Assembly (NCBI GenBank): GCA_040225955.1
Contig: JBECUL010000003.1
Span: 1-64,000, forward strand
Direction: 5' to 3'
From: Candidatus Asgardarchaeum abyssi
GTDB taxonomy: Archaea > Asgardarchaeota > Asgardarchaeia > Asgardarchaeales > Asgardarchaeaceae
Length of the DNA: 64,000 nt
Both the position numbers and the translations under genes were made by a program. Positions 12,949-45,687 of this stretch are shown here, piece after piece. The notes under the pieces are model-generated. The model had not been told where the DNA came from. It made no database searches and was given only the letters and a program-made list of their open reading frames with translations. Positions within the stretch are counted from its first letter, which is position 1, and the number at the start of each line of letters is the position of its first letter.

Positions 12949-13187
12949 TGCCTTCCGAAACAGTTAAATGTTTTATGAGCATTTGTGAGTATTGAGGTAG
13001 TGTCTGAATGTGGTGGGAGTAAAGCACCGAAAGGACACCGCAATGTGAAAGGACGCCGCGATGTGGGCTTGTGGGGTTACCCTGAACGGGGTCGAGACCG
13101 ATGACTTGCTCCCTATGAACCCAGAGGGAGCTGAGGCTGATGTGGCCCAGGGTGGATGTTCGCTCACCAATGCGGACATTCACTGAA
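12949..13187 (+). mobile_element. Non-autonomous 239-bp tnpB-derived element (IS607 or IS200/IS605 type), copy 1
   Basis: ~91% identical to 45171-45409 (20 substitutions, 2 indels by manual alignment); GC-rich; TnpB Zn-finger-like remnant ECGGSKAPKGHRNVK...RDV; conserved hairpins; exact ends uncertain by a few bp. Confidence 0.75.
12955..12970 (+). promoter_or_regulatory. Archaeal BRE/TATA-like promoter at the element's left end (copy 1)
   Basis: CCGAAACAGTTAAATG (CCGAAACAGTTAAATA in copy 2, 45177-45192), upstream of TGAGG and a GTG. Confidence 0.55.
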
Positions 13188-13190
13188 CCC
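13055..13190 (+). ncRNA. Putative TnpB omegaRNA-like structured RNA, copy 1
   Basis: Hairpins GCTCCCT/AGGGAGC (13108-13131) and GGTGGATGT/ACATTCACT (13151-13184); compensatory and G-U-compatible changes versus copy 2; 5' boundary approximate. Confidence 0.55.
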
Positions 13191-13396
13191 CCAAAACACT
13201 CCTTGCATTAATAAATCAAATTATAAGTTCACTGCTCCATAATTTCCTTATGATCCATAATAATAGTGAATATATGAAAAAAGAGCATTAGGACATAAAT
13301 AATCGCAAAATTACTAAAAAGCAGATTAATAAGAGAGATAAAAAAAAGAAAAATAATTTCATTTTAGGAATTAAAGAATTAAGGAAACACAGATTG

Positions 13397-13873
13397 TTAC
13401 TTATCTACTTTCTTTTCCTCTTCCTTCTCTGGTATGTTTTTTGGCTTAGTGCTACTAGACAATTTATCTAATGCTTTTATTACTCCATCGATGATAGCTT
13501 GTGGTCTAGGTGGGCAACCTGGAATATAAATGTCTACTGGGATTATTTTGTCTAGAGGTCCTGCAAATCCATAATCTTCTCCAAATATACCACCAGAGAC
13601 TGCACAAGAACCAACCGCAATAACGCAAACAGGCTTAGGTGTCATCTCATAAATTCGTTTTAGTCGTTCCTTTATCGCAGTAGTTACTGGCCCAGTTACT
13701 ATTAATATATCAGCATGCCTTGGGCTACCTTTCTGAATAATGCCAAAACGTTCAACATCAAATCTAGGTGTCAATGCAGCTACGACCTCTATGTCGCACG
13801 CATTACAACCTCCAGCAGGTACGTGCATTATCCATGGTGACTTTTTTCTTGCCCATGAAATAATCTTACTCAT
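13397..13873 (-). CDS. Group 4 [NiFe]-hydrogenase small subunit (NuoB-like)
   Basis: GGCNACDIE, SPRHAD, GSCAVSGG, PGCPPRP. Confidence 0.93.
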   Translation of the reverse strand: MSKIISWARKKSPWIMHVPAGGCNACDIEVVAALTPRFDVERFGIIQKGSPRHADILIVTGPVTTAIKERLKRIYEMTPKPVCVIAVGSCAVSGGIFGEDYGFAGPLDKIIPVDIYIPGCPPRPQAIIDGVIKALDKLSSSTKPKNIPEKEEEKKVDK

Positions 13874-30450: not shown

Positions 30451-31898
30451 GAATATCCCCTTCTTTTGACCTCTTTAATATAATTTTCTAACTCTTTTTC
30501 AACATCTTTTTCTAATGGCACTTCTGGTTCGTGCTCACTTATTATCTTTTTTACAACCTCATGGGCACGTTCTACAATATCTTTAGAGCCCATTTGCTCC
30601 CATCTTTCCCGTCTCAATCTATCTCCAAGCTTAGGTATGAAATGATCCTTTCTAACATGTTCAAGGGTGTGTCTTTGTGCCAGAAAATGACCTCCTGGTC
30701 CAACGTTTCTTATTATATCAAGCGCTAAAGTTTCTTCGTTAACTTCAATTCCTTTCATAGCATGATATATCATACCAATGATTTCGTTGTCTATTACTAA
30801 GCTTTCCAAGCTTATTGTAAGTGCCAATTCCATTGTTCCTGGGTAGAAAATCATATTAATTCCGCCCATGGCAGCCATAAGGCATGTTAAAGCTTTTTCA
30901 TAGCCTGCTTGCATATCTAATATCTTTGAATCCGTCGCACAAGCAGTTCCTCTACTTGGTAAACCGTAAAATCTTGCAAGTTGTGCTGATGCTACATTTA
31001 CGATCCCTATTTCAATAGCTCCTATTGAGATGTAACCAGTTCTCATGTCCATTACTGTTCCCACAGTTCCATAAAATACAGGAGTTCCTGGACTAACTAA
31101 TTGAGCTATAGTTATTGCTGCTAGTACTTCCGCATTTTGGATAACCAGCAATCCGGCTAATGTTGCTGGGGCAGTAGCTCCAGCCTGGGGCTCTGAAGCT
31201 ATATCAACAGGTTGTCTCATTTTTGCAAATTCTATGAGTCCTTCTAATTGATCTGCATGCAATTGTAGTGGAGATATTGTGTTACTTGTTGTAAAAATCA
31301 TAGGCTTCTTTCTAAGTTCCTCCTCCCCACCAGCAATTATAGAAGCCATTTTCAACATATCCTTAGCTCTTAATCGACCTCGGCATGTACCTTTAATTAC
31401 CTTATCAGAATTCTTTACACTTTGGAGATATCCATAAACATGAGCAAGGTAGTCTGGAACTCCCTCTATATGAGGCATAATTGCTCCACTGTGAAGCATA
31501 TGATAATTTTCCATTGCATCAGCAACCTTAATTAGATTTCCAACATCCTCTAAATTTGTTCTTCTAACGGTTTTTTTCTCATAATCATAAATGTTTAATC
31601 GACCGATCATGGGTTCATATACGACCTTTTTATCTTCTATCGTAACATTATGCTTCTTATTCCTCGCGTAGACAGTAAACCTACTAGGAGCTCTTTTTAC
31701 TTGTTCTTTAATTAGGTATTCTGGGAATTTTACAATTTTTGACTTATCATCAACATCCGCACCAGCTTTTTTCAGAATTTCTCTAGCTTCATCTAATTGC
31801 ACAAAGATTCCTATTGTTGATAAAACTTCAAGTGTTGCATAGTGAATTTGATAAATATCGTCCTTGGAGAGAATTTTGAGCTGCCCACCTCTAATCAT
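30447..31898 (-). CDS. MttB-superfamily methyltransferase, pyrrolysine-free
   Basis: SPLQ, GATAPATLAG, QNAEVLA, TDSK..DMQAGYEK, VGPGGHFL; Ala321 at the Pyl position. Confidence 0.92.
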   Translation of the reverse strand: MIRGGQLKILSKDDIYQIHYATLEVLSTIGIFVQLDEAREILKKAGADVDDKSKIVKFPEYLIKEQVKRAPSRFTVYARNKKHNVTIEDKKVVYEPMIGRLNIYDYEKKTVRRTNLEDVGNLIKVADAMENYHMLHSGAIMPHIEGVPDYLAHVYGYLQSVKNSDKVIKGTCRGRLRAKDMLKMASIIAGGEEELRKKPMIFTTSNTISPLQLHADQLEGLIEFAKMRQPVDIASEPQAGATAPATLAGLLVIQNAEVLAAITIAQLVSPGTPVFYGTVGTVMDMRTGYISIGAIEIGIVNVASAQLARFYGLPSRGTACATDSKILDMQAGYEKALTCLMAAMGGINMIFYPGTMELALTISLESLVIDNEIIGMIYHAMKGIEVNEETLALDIIRNVGPGGHFLAQRHTLEHVRKDHFIPKLGDRLRRERWEQMGSKDIVERAHEVVKKIISEHEPEVPLEKDVEKELENYIKEVKRRGYS

Positions 31899-38972: not shown

Positions 38973-41900
38973 ATGGTATTTGTATTGCTCCTATCACTTT
39001 CTTTTGCCATTTACAATGTTTCAGAAGAACACCAAATTTCATTAAATGAGGAACATAATAATACTTTCGTAAAATATCCCGAAACTATTGGCTTCACACA
39101 AACATCGTCACAATGGTGGAACACATCCTATCTCTATAGGATCCCCATTACTATTTCAGGAAGCAATGGGATTGAAAGAAAAAACGAGCCTATAAGTGTG
39201 CATATAACATTTCCACTAAGTCATGCAAGAATTAACAGTATTCGTATTATAAACCCCAACCTAAAGCAGGTTCCATATCAGATAACCCAACAAGTTCTAG
39301 ATGGGGACTACTATACAGAAGTAACCTTAGTATTTCCCGTTAATATTACAAGTGACAGCACTACCTATTATATTTATTACACATCACAGCAAGTTGAACC
39401 ACCTTCCTTTTCTGACCAATTACAAGTTTCTTTTGATGGTACATCCCTACTAATTGATAATAGGCTATACTCAGCTGGTATTAGTGTTGGCACTGGGTTT
39501 GATAATTTGATTATCAACAATCATAACTTCGCTGAGGTTAACAATTTTGCTCCAATTGCTCAAAATGGTTATTCATTTATAGCCGAATATGTTTCTATAA
39601 AGAGTAGCGATGAAATACACATTATATCTTGGTATGATAATACGTTTTTCAGAGTTGTTGATCCAACAGATGGTACAATAATCATACAAGGAATATTGAA
39701 TGAAGGAGAGCAATATGTATATTCTTCCCCAGCCGATGCTCTGTTAAAGATAGAGTCAAACAATACAATTACATTCCAAATATATAAATACCCACCAGAT
39801 AGGCTTCCGACCGATCTATCAAATGATGACACTTGGTGCTATACTGGTGCTATGTTATATGCTTGGGTGAGATACCATCTATATATAGCTACCTTTGACA
39901 AATCTGCAAAAATAGAAATATGGGATTTGCAAAACGATGATAGCGTGGACGACACTGATAATTTCTACGGATCCAATGCAATATTATTATCACCTGGTGA
40001 GGTTTGGAGCTATACCTCCTTTGATGGAGACGTAATCCGTATAAAGTCAAATACAACAATTTATGTGCTAGGTGATTCAGTTGAAGCATCAACTGGTAGG
40101 CCAGATGGGCCAGAAACATTTTCAACTGCTTATGGAATTAATCAAACATACTATACTGTTTTTGGAGCCCCTCTTGACGGAGGAGGAGGCTATATTGGTA
40201 TCATGGCCCTTCAGGATAATACCTATGTAGAAGTTGTGGATAAAGCAGCAGCAACAAGCATCTCTAATGTTCTTAATTCTTTGGAAGTTGTGGTTCACAA
40301 TGTAGCCGATGGTTGGTTTGACATAAAATCCGATAAACCAATCGTAGTTTATACCAGTATGCATCAAGAAGCTGGGAAAAATCCTAATATCTACGGCCTT
40401 GAAATACTTGGTAATAGTAAAGACTATTATATCATAAATCCAAATGATCCAAATAGCGGCACCACATATAAGTTAAGAATAACTTATACGGCACTTGATG
40501 ACAATACTGCCGTATATATTTTGCAGCAAGACAACTTAAATCCCTCTCCAGATATATTACTAAAATATCAAAGTAATACCTTTGATGTATCTCCTGGCCA
40601 AGGTGTAGTTATTTATTCAAATAAACCACTTGCTGTTAGACTGTCTTTTGTGGATGCCGATGGTCTCCCCCTTGCTGGCCTTCAAGGTGAATCCCTTTTA
40701 GTTATGGAACGAAGGCCCTCAATTACAAAAATCCAGGAGATTGAAAAAGGGGCCGTTTTTGCAAAGTATAAATTGTATTGGAATTCTACCGATAACATGT
40801 TAAATGCGACAGATATTGTGACCTTTTACTATAAGTATCCCCTTATAAAATTTAATAGAACTATCTGGTGGGGAACATCTAATACAAGATATTCATTTGA
40901 GCCCATGATTTTTCACTATGACACAATTCAACAGTCATCAATGTATTTAAGTGATGTGATAGCTGATAGTAGTTTATATTCCTTAATGGATTTTGCTAGA
41001 GCTACAGCCTATGTAAGCGGATGGAGCTCATCAGACTACACTGGGATAGGCCTTATTATTGAGAGTGTTAATTCAATAGGTGCTGAAGGCCTTCCAGCTT
41101 TTGCATATTATGAATTGCCTTGTGGATTATCTATCACCAGCGGAAGATTTGATATATCACTTAATGTTTATGAACTTAGTACCTTTTCAGGATCAGCGTA
41201 CTCAATTAAGATAAATGGAGCCATAATTGCTGGTAATAATTTTGCCTTAATATCTGAGATTGATTCACTATATCAATCAGTATTGTATCCCTTGCTAGGA
41301 ACTCTTGGCGATGAAGAAATGCTAATGAATTTACTTGTATCTATCTTTGATCTCGATGGAAATCCAGTTGTTAACGCTAATACAACATTGTATTCCTCTG
41401 CTGGTGTAAAGCTTTTCAGTGAGTATACCAATTCAACTGGTGAAGTCTTCTTTGATAAAATACCTGAGTTGGGAAACTATACACTAAACGTGTTTTATTC
41501 TACTAAATATAATTTAGATGTAGAGGCAGTAGAGGTAGTTTCATTTACTGCTAGTGATATTGGTACTGTTAAAAAAGTAAATGTTACTCTAGCATTAGCA
41601 AATTTCACGATAAAAGTTGTTGATCTTTTAGGTGATGCTATTTCTGGTGATGCAAGAGTAAGGTTAAAGAATGCTTCTAATTCGGCGCAGATAATTGCTG
41701 AATCTGTAACGAATTCAAGTGGTTTTGCTTATTTTGACTATCTGCCCGGAACTAATTACATAATAGAATCTCACTATATACCCGGAGCTACTGTATCAAT
41801 AGACGCATACAACTTTACTCATCATACCTCATTTAATTTAAATTTAACAAAAGTTATCACAGTAGTAGAATTGTTAAATACAATTTCTGTGAGAGTCCTG

Positions 41901-44900
41901 AATTATGATGGAAACCCTGTAACAGATGCCTTTGTTATTAGGACGAACCTTGATGTCTCTCAGGATACATATCAAACATCAGCAACTACAAATGCCACTG
42001 GCTGGGTCACTTTTGAAAGAATACGTGTAGGTAATACAAGATTTTTTGTAAGTTACGCAAATGATTATGATCAAGATATAATAAATGCAACAATAACTTA
42101 CCTTTATGACAATACGAGTGCGGCTGTTGATGTTATCCTTCCCATGGCGTCTCTCATTGTAAGGGCTTATGATGTTTCACATTCAAATTATATTCAAGGC
42201 GCACTTATGTACGTTAATAACACAGATGGGTCCTCGGTAACTTATTCGTCAACAAATCAATCTGGTTATGTTGTATTCGAAAATATTGCATGCGGCATTA
42301 AGTATAATGTTAGTGTTGTAAAGAATAATAATTGGAATTGGACATTATTAACCCTAAATGATACAACCTTCATTCAGCTTAATATATCAATATCTTGGAC
42401 TCCCACGGATACTATATTAATGCTGTATAATTCAACAATTATAGATGCCGTCTGGGATGACAATGTAACTATTGTAGTAGGCTTTATTAATCGAACAGAT
42501 TTCCAAACAGGGTTAATAGACATACCCCTACAAGAAAATGAAGTTGATTCGCTAACGTATAAAATTATACTTGGAGATACAGTTATTGCCACAGGTAATT
42601 TTACGTATGATACAACAACTGGAAATTGGACAGCAAAACTCGATATTGGTCAATTAAAATTAAATGCTAGTAATTCCTTCTTAATAGTAATAGAAGGAGA
42701 TGCTCGTGCAAATTCAACTACGCTTGTGCAGTTTAATGACCCTACTCCAACAACCTTGAAACTTATAGTAGATTTTGCAGATACTACTGCCCTGTATACA
42801 TATAACGATATTTATGTTGAATGGGGATTTAACGTATCTCTTAGTTTTACCTTTGTTGATGGGCATGGTATCTACTTGAAATCAGCAATAACTCGAGCAT
42901 CCGTCTTACAAGATACTGAGACGTATCATCTATATGGTTCCCTTATAAATCTTGGCAATGGAACTTATGCATTTCAAGGAAACACTGGTGATGTTAATGG
43001 CTTGAATCTACCAGTAGGTAATTATACATTAGTTATTTTTATGGGTGAATTTAATTACAATAACCAGACCATATATCTTCCATTACATGTAACTTCAAGG
43101 CAGACATCAATTGATTCATCAATATCAAGCATATCTGTTAATTGGAGTAATCCATTTACATTTTATGTGAACTATTCTTCTTATGGCGTATCTTTGAATG
43201 ATGCAAATGTCTGGTTGCAATGGGATACGGGGTTAAAGCTCAATTACTCATCATATTCAAATGGTTTATACACCTTTGTTGCGAATACATCTTCTATTGA
43301 TGTTGGAGTACACACATTAACAGTTTATGCAAGCCTATCGAACTATACTGAAAAATCAATATTGATTACAGTTGAGGTACTTCCTTTACCGACTGAAATA
43401 GACCCTATCTCTCAAATTCAATTCTCCATAAATTGGTCAGTGCCAGTCACAGTAGTCGTAGAGTATAGAGACCTAAATCATTCTGCCAAGATCCCTGATG
43501 CAACAGTTTCAATGACAAACTGGAATAGCTCCGCTTTTTCATATGAATATTCTGATGGAAAATATTATATTACGTTCCTTAGCCAGTATGTACCACCAGG
43601 AAATTATAGTATTACTATAAAGATTTCAAAGCCAAACTATCAACAGGCACAACTACTTGTAAAAATTAATGTCCTTATTCCCCTAAAAATACAACTTTTG
43701 ACAGAACAGATTGAGTTCGTCTATTGGCTTGAAAAATTTTCCATAAACGCTACAGTCATCAACCAATATAACGGAAGCGTTGTAGAAAATATAACACTAG
43801 TCTACTCTCAAGAAAACTTAGGGATTGACAATTTAGAAATACCATACGATCTCGATTTGGGGCATTTCTATATAGTGGTTAACACGACAATGTTTGATTC
43901 TGAAGGAACATATTTATTTAGATTGAATATAATGAATAGCGGTGTAATTGTCGCTCCAGTAGATGTATTTATTGTAATACAAAAGAGACCAATCAATATG
44001 GTCTACCCTACCCCATTAGTAATACCTGCCTACTATGCTGATATTATTAATCTGACAATATCTTTGAGAGACGCATACAACGAATTTCCAGTAACATCTC
44101 CAGATTCTGTTGTTGCTAGTTTAAGCGTAGGAGAGATGTTTATTTGCAATAATATATCAACAATATACGAAGTATCTCCTGGCGATTATAGATTCACTAT
44201 AAATACAGATGGTCTGAACTTAATGGCAGGTCAGACATATATTTTGACTATCTCATTCCAAAAAGTAGGATTTCAAATAGATACCATAATAACATACACT
44301 ATATTTATCCAAGAAACTCCTGCTAGCGTAGATGTTTATGTTGAAAGCATTGTGTATTGGGGCGAAAATGTAACATTTGTTGCATCCTACCAAGATACAG
44401 TACATAATACTTCAATTAATGCTAGTAATGTAACTTTAAATATCGCGGGTAATGTATATTCAATGATGCCTTCAGAAAATGTGTTTGTCCTAACATTAAA
44501 TACCTCACAATTTACAACCGGTACCTACTTAGTCAAGGTATCTGCTGTTGCTAATAATTATGAATTAGCTGACCATTCCTTCCAGCTCCAAATACTCAAT
44601 AGAACAACACAAATCCGAGTTGAATTTTACCCAGAAGAAAGAATAATAATTCAAGGTTCTGTCGAAAAAATGAAAATATTCGTAGAGTATATTGATTCGT
44701 TCAGCAATAGACCCATTCATAACGCAACTGTTACTTTTTCAACTGGCGGTAGCATTATGTACACACTACAAGAATACCCAAATGGAACTTATATTCTAAT
44801 TTTAGATATGACAAATTTCACAACAGTGGGAAATTATACATTCATTATCTCGGCCAAAAAGGCGAACTATGAGTTTAAGAGTCAGCTGTTTCAGATAACT

Positions 44901-45200
44901 ATAGAGGAGCCATATATCGCAATTGGTGGTGTAAAAATACCTGTTCGGTCGGTTGTTAATATTGGTGGTAGTGTATCGGTAGCAGTAGCACTTATGGGTG
45001 TTGCATTGTACGGATACAGAAATTACAAAATCCCTTGGATAATCCGTATTACCGATAAAGCCATAAGAGCTCTCATTAAAGGAAAACCGGTTGACTTCTC
45101 TAAGTTCCCAGACTTCAGTGACTTATTAGAAGATGCAATAGCTCCTATGTTCGCTAGCATAAAGATACAATGCCCTCCGAAACAGTTAAATATTTTATGA
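38973..45200 (+). CDS. Giant cell-surface glycoprotein (DUF2341-like N-terminus, IgGFc-binding-like and Ig-like repeats, C-terminal TM anchor); last 9 codons supplied by an inserted element
   Basis: Signal peptide, WWNTSYLYRIPITI, KSDKPIVV/YSNKPLAV, many N-x-S/T sequons, TM followed by YKIPWIIRITDKAIRALIKGK. Confidence 0.85.
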   Translation: MVFVLLLSLSFAIYNVSEEHQISLNEEHNNTFVKYPETIGFTQTSSQWWNTSYLYRIPITISGSNGIERKNEPISVHITFPLSHARINSIRIINPNLKQVPYQITQQVLDGDYYTEVTLVFPVNITSDSTTYYIYYTSQQVEPPSFSDQLQVSFDGTSLLIDNRLYSAGISVGTGFDNLIINNHNFAEVNNFAPIAQNGYSFIAEYVSIKSSDEIHIISWYDNTFFRVVDPTDGTIIIQGILNEGEQYVYSSPADALLKIESNNTITFQIYKYPPDRLPTDLSNDDTWCYTGAMLYAWVRYHLYIATFDKSAKIEIWDLQNDDSVDDTDNFYGSNAILLSPGEVWSYTSFDGDVIRIKSNTTIYVLGDSVEASTGRPDGPETFSTAYGINQTYYTVFGAPLDGGGGYIGIMALQDNTYVEVVDKAAATSISNVLNSLEVVVHNVADGWFDIKSDKPIVVYTSMHQEAGKNPNIYGLEILGNSKDYYIINPNDPNSGTTYKLRITYTALDDNTAVYILQQDNLNPSPDILLKYQSNTFDVSPGQGVVIYSNKPLAVRLSFVDADGLPLAGLQGESLLVMERRPSITKIQEIEKGAVFAKYKLYWNSTDNMLNATDIVTFYYKYPLIKFNRTIWWGTSNTRYSFEPMIFHYDTIQQSSMYLSDVIADSSLYSLMDFARATAYVSGWSSSDYTGIGLIIESVNSIGAEGLPAFAYYELPCGLSITSGRFDISLNVYELSTFSGSAYSIKINGAIIAGNNFALISEIDSLYQSVLYPLLGTLGDEEMLMNLLVSIFDLDGNPVVNANTTLYSSAGVKLFSEYTNSTGEVFFDKIPELGNYTLNVFYSTKYNLDVEAVEVVSFTASDIGTVKKVNVTLALANFTIKVVDLLGDAISGDARVRLKNASNSAQIIAESVTNSSGFAYFDYLPGTNYIIESHYIPGATVSIDAYNFTHHTSFNLNLTKVITVVELLNTISVRVLNYDGNPVTDAFVIRTNLDVSQDTYQTSATTNATGWVTFERIRVGNTRFFVSYANDYDQDIINATITYLYDNTSAAVDVILPMASLIVRAYDVSHSNYIQGALMYVNNTDGSSVTYSSTNQSGYVVFENIACGIKYNVSVVKNNNWNWTLLTLNDTTFIQLNISISWTPTDTILMLYNSTIIDAVWDDNVTIVVGFINRTDFQTGLIDIPLQENEVDSLTYKIILGDTVIATGNFTYDTTTGNWTAKLDIGQLKLNASNSFLIVIEGDARANSTTLVQFNDPTPTTLKLIVDFADTTALYTYNDIYVEWGFNVSLSFTFVDGHGIYLKSAITRASVLQDTETYHLYGSLINLGNGTYAFQGNTGDVNGLNLPVGNYTLVIFMGEFNYNNQTIYLPLHVTSRQTSIDSSISSISVNWSNPFTFYVNYSSYGVSLNDANVWLQWDTGLKLNYSSYSNGLYTFVANTSSIDVGVHTLTVYASLSNYTEKSILITVEVLPLPTEIDPISQIQFSINWSVPVTVVVEYRDLNHSAKIPDATVSMTNWNSSAFSYEYSDGKYYITFLSQYVPPGNYSITIKISKPNYQQAQLLVKINVLIPLKIQLLTEQIEFVYWLEKFSINATVINQYNGSVVENITLVYSQENLGIDNLEIPYDLDLGHFYIVVNTTMFDSEGTYLFRLNIMNSGVIVAPVDVFIVIQKRPINMVYPTPLVIPAYYADIINLTISLRDAYNEFPVTSPDSVVASLSVGEMFICNNISTIYEVSPGDYRFTINTDGLNLMAGQTYILTISFQKVGFQIDTIITYTIFIQETPASVDVYVESIVYWGENVTFVASYQDTVHNTSINASNVTLNIAGNVYSMMPSENVFVLTLNTSQFTTGTYLVKVSAVANNYELADHSFQLQILNRTTQIRVEFYPEERIIIQGSVEKMKIFVEYIDSFSNRPIHNATVTFSTGGSIMYTLQEYPNGTYILILDMTNFTTVGNYTFIISAKKANYEFKSQLFQITIEEPYIAIGGVKIPVRSVVNIGGSVSVAVALMGVALYGYRNYKIPWIIRITDKAIRALIKGKPVDFSKFPDFSDLLEDAIAPMFASIKIQCPPKQLNIL

Positions 45201-45409
45201 GCATTTATGAGTACTGAGGCAGTGTCCGAATGTGGCGGGAGTAAAGCACCGAAAGGACACCGCAATGTGAAAGGACGCTGTGATGTGGGGCTTGTGGGGT
45301 TACCCTGAACGGGTCAAGACCAATGACTTGCCCCCCATGAACCCAGAGGGGGCTGAGGCTGATGAGGCCCAAGGTGGATGTTTGCTCATCAATGCGGACA
45401 TCCACCGAA
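45171..45409 (+). mobile_element. Non-autonomous 239-bp tnpB-derived element, copy 2, inserted in the 3' end of the surface-protein gene
   Basis: Repeat of 12949-13187; removing it restores the in-frame tail PPVRVAE-stop (45410-45433). Confidence 0.78.
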
Positions 45410-45412
45410 CCC
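45277..45412 (+). ncRNA. Putative TnpB omegaRNA-like structured RNA, copy 2
   Basis: Hairpins GCCCCC/GGGGGC (45330-45353) and perfect GGTGGATGT/ACATCCACC (45373-45406); 5' boundary approximate. Confidence 0.55.
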
Positions 45413-45687
45413 CCTGTAAGGGTTGCAGAGTAATTTCTCTCTTCTTTTTATTCTTCTTCGGTTTAACATAGTATCACATCTATGAGTGTATTTAAGAGAT
45501 TTTAGTGTATATGATGCTCATTATTCTATAAAACAAGATAAAAAATAATCCCAAAAGCTAGAGTTCTAACTAAATTATTAAATAGAGTGGTCTAGGCTTA
45601 AATAAGTTTGAATATTAAGGTAACTCTTCCATTAAGAGAGAAAAATATATAGCAAACTTTAAACCTTTTAGAAAAACTTAAGATTAA

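Follow-up and report, generated by a model that had tools for sequence, protein, structure and literature searches.

A putative guide-RNA scaffold kept in a gene-less element family of IS607 descent

Two repeats in the 64,000-nt stretch of DNA analysed here (the window) belong to a family of elements in which both genes of the parents are absent, and in which the ends, a TATA-like box and the scaffold of an omegaRNA are present. The element is almost certainly a non-autonomous IS607 derivative. Comparison with intact relatives shows that it arose by deletion from a ~1.9-kb element with tnpA (a serine recombinase) and tnpB. The deletion product, called the mini below, keeps every helix that covaries in the RNA of the parents. 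The best explanation, which we regard as likely, is that a left end with the tnpA promoter was fused to a trimmed omegaRNA gene. Selection probably acted on the RNA at the time when such minis originated and spread. Whether it still works at present with a TnpB of this genome is more doubtful, although possible.

Copy 1 occupies positions 12951-13191 and copy 2 positions 45173-45413, both on the plus strand, as are all parts of the element given below. These coordinates include the CC cores at both ends, and the length is 239 bp if one core is counted. The ranges first annotated began 2 nt inside the target and ended 4 nt early. The two copies are identical in 220 of 242 alignment columns (90.9%), and their GC content is 53%, as opposed to 35.6% for the window. 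The initial annotation had described two GC-rich copies of ~91% identity. Identity and composition hold, but the family is not limited to two: a BLAST search for further copies, proposed as a check at that time, gave ~22 matches in the 2.6-Mb, 189-contig assembly, ~17 of them near-complete. The median pairwise identity among genome copies is 92%, and by length they divide into a long (241-242 bp) and a short (220-224 bp) form. The alignment of copies contains a variable linker (13039-13059) that is missing from the short subfamily, and a 10-bp segment is inverted between two long subfamilies. This segment lies at 13037-13046 of the window, and its opposite orientations represent a hairpin-loop inversion. 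A 107-bp variant without the 5' half of the RNA, and without the hairpin SL0 described below, was also found. Copy 1 is intergenic, between a luciferase-like gene and a NuoB-like gene. Copy 2 lies inside the last codons of a 2075-aa Ig-repeat ORF (38973-45200) and exchanges its last 5 residues for 7.

The intact 1.9-kb element L147 encodes a 202-aa MerR/resolvase TnpA and a 416-aa TnpB and is sited after GCC. The left end of copy 1 (12953-12999) corresponds to parent sequence up to the former tnpA ATG and is 84% identical to L147 over 45 nt; on the right, the match is 86% across 117 nt. Because an intact element with a serine-type tnpA and a tnpB shares both ends, the mini is read as an IS607 deletion product. 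Similar tnpA+tnpB elements are present in genomes G006 (including contig G006:C96), G047 and G152, and the related tnpA of the genome under study encodes an IS607 transposase (NF033518 match). In the parents, the same stretch of DNA encodes the TnpB tail; the RNA overlaps the 3' end of tnpB and stops at the right end. The initial annotation had proposed a non-autonomous IS607 derivative and had made this reading depend on a tnpB-bearing parent with the same ends and on covariation in a larger alignment; both were found.

The insertion sites share a strict target. All 19 readable left junctions (18 tabulated copies and one on contig C64) read G-C(C/T), with CT once and CC otherwise, whereas only 17.6% of genomic CC is preceded by G. 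The right end of copies reads GAACCCC. The base before GCC is never G (0 of 18 sites in this genome, G000, and 0 of 13 in G152), and C is enriched there, at 8 of 18 sites against a background of 15%. The junction table places the G-CC motif of copy 1 at 12950-12952 and that of copy 2 at 45172-45174. In copy 1, for which the empty allele of another copy was also considered, the CC is the left crossover core, and the motif is the predicted TAM. This empty allele is found on metagenome contig L052, which lacks the copy on contig C61 and reads G-CC followed by the flank, with an identity of 99.6% across 8 kb to one side and of 97% to the other. Moreover, long host frames are recovered at four copies when exactly two C are put back. 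Since empty and filled alleles can be compared and the frames are restored with two C, the core is 2 bp, target duplication is absent, and the insertions are polymorphic. These junctions show that the family has been mobile, evidently inserting at 5'-(A/C/T)G-CC-3' by crossover within CC. A CC crossover core had been suggested before, and the empty allele, with a G-CC target and no duplication, agrees with it. L052 also carries a copy 550 bp away, where the genome under study is empty and reads G-CT. This second junction is possibly misassembled, as its 54-bp left flank is that of copy 1 in the window, reflecting either misassembly or recombination between copies. Two polymorphic insertion sites are therefore seen between L052:1-830 and G000:C61:2654-3446, and the allele without the C61 copy has an intact 184-aa membrane-protein frame.

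The left end combines a putative promoter with repeats. A TATA-like TTAAAT is present at 12964 in copy 1 and at 45186 in copy 2, and in copy 1 it belongs to a BRE/TATA-like box with the TATA at 12964-12971. RTGAGYA direct repeats follow at 10-bp spacing (12975 and 12985 in copy 1). Both features were recognized in the initial annotation and are confirmed here. The right end carries a related TGAG motif in inverted orientation, within hairpin P4, and there are no terminal inverted repeats. The RTGAGYA repeats are probable TnpA sites. Because the TATA box stands 37-41 nt ahead of the tnpA ATG in four parents with the same left end, it is most likely the tnpA promoter of the parents. A scan for sigma-70 promoters and terminators, with a model that does not cover archaeal promoters, gave nothing. 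Matches to the left-end motif in genome contigs were discarded as chance matches.

The core of the omegaRNA is made up of several helices and a pseudoknot. In copy 1, alignment and RNAalifold define hairpin P0 (13060-13082); its loop contains GGGGTT (13073-13078), which supplies the 5' strand of the pseudoknot. P2, a K-turn motif and hairpin P3 (13108-13131) occupy 13089-13148, as indicated by covariation. The K-turn motif, assigned by its match to the known consensus, consists of ACC-RAT-GA at 13097-13104 with GA-GG at 13133-13136. The terminal hairpin P4 (13151-13184; RNAalifold) contains the inverted right-end TGAG repeat. The terminal AACCCC (13186-13191; covariation and junctions) is the 3' strand of the pseudoknot, and its last CC is the right core. 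By alignment, the core of copy 2 (45282-45413) has the same P0, pseudoknot, P2, K-turn, P3 and P4. Across 23 sequences, 94% of cells are paired in P2, a short C-stem and P3, and 10 of the 15 pairs change on both sides. This covariation is reached by 0 of 500 shuffles, a control that is inflated by the relatedness of the sequences, and slid controls are also far lower (29-59%). With 11 sequences, RNAalifold additionally gives P4 and pairs GGGGTT with the terminal AACCCC. In sequences that have C at the end of the 5' strand, the terminus has mostly gone from A to G and the loop is unchanged, and the arms of P0 are swapped to CCCC/GGGG in G047:C123. Both a loop AACCC and the terminal AACCCC had been offered as partners of GGGGTT. 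Only the terminal pairing covaries, so GGGGTT and AACCCC evidently form a terminal pseudoknot beside the guide; pairing with the loop, which does not covary, is rejected. A pseudoknot next to the guide is also present in other TnpB RNAs.

A covarying stem has an invariant ATGA facing a conserved GA, an arrangement that we take to fit the K-turn consensus. The genome has an L7Ae gene, and the K-turn-bearing core may bind L7Ae as a host cofactor. No Rfam family, RAGATH-18 included, matches the element when searched with covariance models. The structured omegaRNA-like region proposed earlier is thus upheld by covariation across relatives. The compensatory change highlighted at that time, from T13110:A13129 to C45332:G45351, is real and lies in P3; however, it is private to copy 2 and C-G also occurs in the parents, and for this reason it is no sign of selection after gene loss. 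Within the gene-less copies, substitutions do not significantly spare helices (P 0.06-0.27), and shared changes number 3 against 2.9 expected, with low power. A like-for-like helix-sparing test on the G152 copies gave P 0.32, one helix being out of register.

The 5' domain of the omegaRNA is proposed to be SL0, a hairpin with a 5x3 internal loop formed by the DNA of the first Zn-knuckle of tnpB. Folding and covariation place it at 13000-13038 in copy 1, and folding and alignment at 45222-45260 in copy 2. In six full-length parents, synonymous recodings of the peptide fold less well than SL0 itself (P 0.006-0.046), and in five other parents the region is no better than such recodings (P 0.57-0.77). 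Seven of its 13 pairs covary, with 76% paired versus 39-49% in slid controls. The hairpin is weakened in the short subfamily. The same DNA had been interpreted as a protein remnant, a collapsed Zn-finger followed by the RDV of RuvC-III. The peptide does read as stated from 13000, but only CGG is in the frame of the parent and KHRK is in the next frame. A protein remnant is rejected, as the first-knuckle DNA is kept as a hairpin and the frame is mostly lost. The letters RDV align to later M-W codons of the parent, the true RuvC-III reads DRQ or NRQ, and RDV is evidently an off-frame coincidence.

Gene-less derivatives of the parents that fold in this region keep SL0, and they come from three genomes. 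They comprise this family and G000:C54, four minis and an independent 13-copy family in G152, the latter with a 5' hairpin, and two derivatives in G006. Most of them put SL0 at the former tnpA ATG, the two in G006 being exceptions, and in most the DNA separating SL0 from the core has been deleted. The distance from SL0 to the crossover core is 45-55 nt in this family and the four G152 minis, and the ATG of the parents is at 49-54. The corresponding values are 66 for SL0 and 69 for the ATG in a second family, and SL0 stands at 20 and 91 in the two G006 derivatives. An internal segment is therefore predicted to be removable (299 nt in the parent versus 191 in the mini). Minis in G058 and G041 show no SL0 segment, and their parents are also without SL0; the G000:C53 derivative is without it as well. 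Some of the derivatives that keep SL0 may share ancestors, and the independent origins number at least two. The mini keeps ~190 nt of the right side. Ends of 40/60 bp are enough for CboTnpA, an IS607 TnpA, and SL0 retention is therefore the best evidence that the RNA, and not the ends alone, was kept.

The element could also be a plain MITE that spreads via TnpA-binding ends, its promoter being incidental to that left end and its RNA now a drifting passenger. This explanation is unlikely but possible. It accords with the overlap of the repeats and the promoter, the right-end repeat within P4, the lack of significant helix selection within copies, the existence of the 107-bp variant and the absence of an exact cognate tnpB from the assembly. 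It leaves unexplained, however, why unrelated deletions keep an internal SL0 and remove what lies between it and the core, and why the keeping of SL0 tracks folding of the parent in that region. A plain MITE would also have kept ~130 nt more than CboTnpA needs.

Other gene-less IS607 derivatives were observed during this analysis. The 13-copy family of G152 (L168-L181) is ~200 bp long and has the same left end together with the RNA of a DRD-type TnpB; all copies lie after GCC and are 84-93% identical to one reference copy. In the genome under study, G000:C53:479-652, C54:8036-8280 and C28 (L008) are further gene-less or nearly gene-less derivatives with RNA of the type found on contig C1. The G000:C53 derivative joins a C44-type left end to C1-type RNA.

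The proteins that would act on the mini are less clear. The only complete IS607 tnpA in the assembly (C44; L011:111-734) has its catalytic Ser changed to Tyr and a different left end. The catalytic Ser is kept in all eight other tnpA copies seen, and other tnpA pieces lie at contig ends of the 189-contig assembly. No tnpB in the assembly comes with exactly the RNA of the mini. The best-matching tnpB, which shares some helices and has a RuvC-III Asp to Gln change, is in unjoined pieces at four contig ends (C44/C12/C97/C135). An open 396-aa DRD-type TnpB (C1) has SL0, P0 and the pseudoknot in common with the mini; P2/P3 are not shared. The helpers may be unassembled, given the fragmented assembly.

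The nearest TnpB clade is found in Bathyarchaeota, Thermoprotei and Staphylothermus marinus, and the archaeal TnpB clade has 309 matches at E <= 1e-40 (alignment A5; L043:689-2035). This cognate clade departs from the canonical D-E-D triad of the TnpB RuvC domain in that the third position is Gln. All 112 scored homologues have [DN]R[QH] at the catalytic Asp of ISDra2. The RuvC-I Asp (D208 in G047 numbering) and the RuvC-II Glu (E293) are invariant, as is an extra Asp seven residues after RuvC-I. An AlphaFold model of the TnpB (pLDDT 76.8, pTM 0.47) gives only a loose match to TnpB/Cas12f. The altered residue raises the idea that the RNA guides a non-cutting or nicking TnpB, making the minis modules for RNA-guided binding or marking instead of homing-cleavage guides. 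The uniform [DN]R[QH] argues for it, but we find it improbable: the other acidic residues are conserved, the strict GCC target resembles that of TAM-matched cutting systems, and the RNA in the G152 family is that of a canonical DRD TnpB. Conserved RuvC rearrangements are also known in archaea and are presumed to be still active (PMC10691335). A host-domesticated non-coding RNA family, that is, a C/D-box-like sRNA with K-turns, would fit the K-turn-like ATGA/CTGA motifs and the L7Ae gene, but it is hardly credible given polymorphic gene-breaking insertions, transposon parents, a box D not conserved in relatives and no Rfam match, the empty allele and the parent element largely refuting it.

In viral contigs, no TnpB relative was found, and the RNA core was present in 0 of 34 motif matches. 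Two IS607 elements in G006 (L044 on G006:C96 and L047/L033 on G006:C55) contain ~0.8-kb inserts encoding LAGLIDADG+HTH proteins. These inserts lie within the region of the tnpB 3' end and omegaRNA, one just after RuvC-III and the other inside SL0. No bulge-helix-bulge was found at the insert junctions.

By the IS607 rule, the predicted guides are host flank at 13192-13211 for copy 1, which has no other 12-nt match in the genome, and positions 45414-45433 for copy 2. Compared with the rest of the genome, the guides have no GCC-adjacent match of >=12 nt and one 10-nt match. Guides aimed at host genes or other copies are rejected on this ground, and since no other GCC-adjacent 12-nt match exists, new guides would aim only at their own empty sites. 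If the mini is a fused, trimmed omegaRNA gene, a TnpA made elsewhere would excise and integrate it. The TATA box would start a transcript a few bases before SL0, and this transcript would extend for ~190 nt across the scaffold and on into the right flank. A TnpB supplied from elsewhere would load this RNA and recognize GCC with the flank, which is the empty allele of the copy itself. By the precedent of IS607/IS605 work, TnpB with the RNA of the element would attack the rejoined site after excision, and repair would restore the copy. Such targeting of the empty allele would favour retention of the copy. At the right end the sequence is C-CC instead of G-CC, so that the filled site would be spared. 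A wider proposal, put forward only tentatively and unlikely to hold in full, is that minis are repeatedly evolved, selected minimal guide-RNA genes that guide an archaeal clade of RuvC-III-Gln TnpB in trans to the empty site of each copy. Their breakpoints would then map a two-part omegaRNA, with SL0 in Zn-finger codons and a K-turn core that may bind L7Ae.

The element type is not new, as stand-alone omegaRNAs, omegaRNA-bearing PATEs and the IS607-linked repeats of S. marinus have already been published. The present analysis adds an exact empty allele, a resolved pseudoknot, the pattern in which SL0 is retained, and doubts about the helpers. The archaeal element SMN1 depends on the ISC1733 transposase, of the IS200/IS605 type. 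Like the mini, SMN1 of Sulfolobus islandicus is gene-less (320 bp) and mobilised in trans, and no RNA role is described for it (PMC3718332). Stand-alone omegaRNAs of OMEGA systems have been reported (Altae-Tran 2021, summarised in PMC10691335). According to that summary, they resemble the mini in being mobilised without effector or transposase, in having effector loci in the same genomes and in their proposed action in trans. Trans function was demonstrated there, whereas the mini has IS607 serine-recombinase ends and a putative archaeal promoter, and trans action is proposed for it. The role of stand-alone omegaRNAs is stated as unknown in the same summary. PATE-like elements of the IS200/IS605 group in Geobacillus stearothermophilus also have no protein genes, keep both ends and often encode omegaRNAs needing TnpB in trans (PMC10055086). 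Their hairpin ends are read by a Y1 HUH transposase on ssDNA, in contrast to the direct repeats, CC core and serine-recombinase parent of the mini. PATE membership is rejected because the parents are serine-recombinase elements and the left end consists of repeats, not subterminal hairpins.

The IS607 TnpA(S)/TnpB systems CboIStron, ISXfa1 and RAGATH-18 share with the mini a dinucleotide core, a TAM and a scaffold that end in the core, and a terminal pseudoknot (10.1101/2023.11.20.567912; 10.1101/2023.08.09.552727; PMC11061315). A possible kink-turn has also been noted in RAGATH-18. The mini differs from these systems in its target, which is G-CC on the RNA strand and not TGGG, GGG or AGGAG, in having no Rfam match and no intron, and in the RuvC-III Asp to Gln change of the cognate TnpB. 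The ~260-nt IS607-linked repeats of S. marinus (14 copies) are like the mini in size class, copy number and gene disruption (PMC2678158). Compared by description, they are inverted-repeat MITEs that resemble the DNA upstream of four one-ORF elements, and no RNA role is given. One IS607 TnpB of S. marinus belongs to the same clade (65%) and carries SL0 and the same RNA core (82% over 73 nt).

The family makes sharp predictions: the TAM should be GCC, the 5' end of the scaffold should lie at SL0, an internal segment should be removable, and the target should be the empty allele. S. marinus is cultured, has a complete genome and contains the same TnpB clade and RNA, so these questions are testable. 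The family further draws attention to a TnpB clade that is associated with thermophiles and altered in its active site, and to L7Ae as a possible cofactor from the host. A literature search found no paper on such a clade or on L7Ae as a cofactor. Elsewhere in the window, the NuoB-like small subunit adjoining copy 1 (13397-13873, minus strand) closes a run of minus-strand ORFs that begins at ~22658. The minus strand also carries a match to the Rfam family PYLIS_3, the pyrrolysine insertion element of mttB, at 30839-30938 (53.7 bits).
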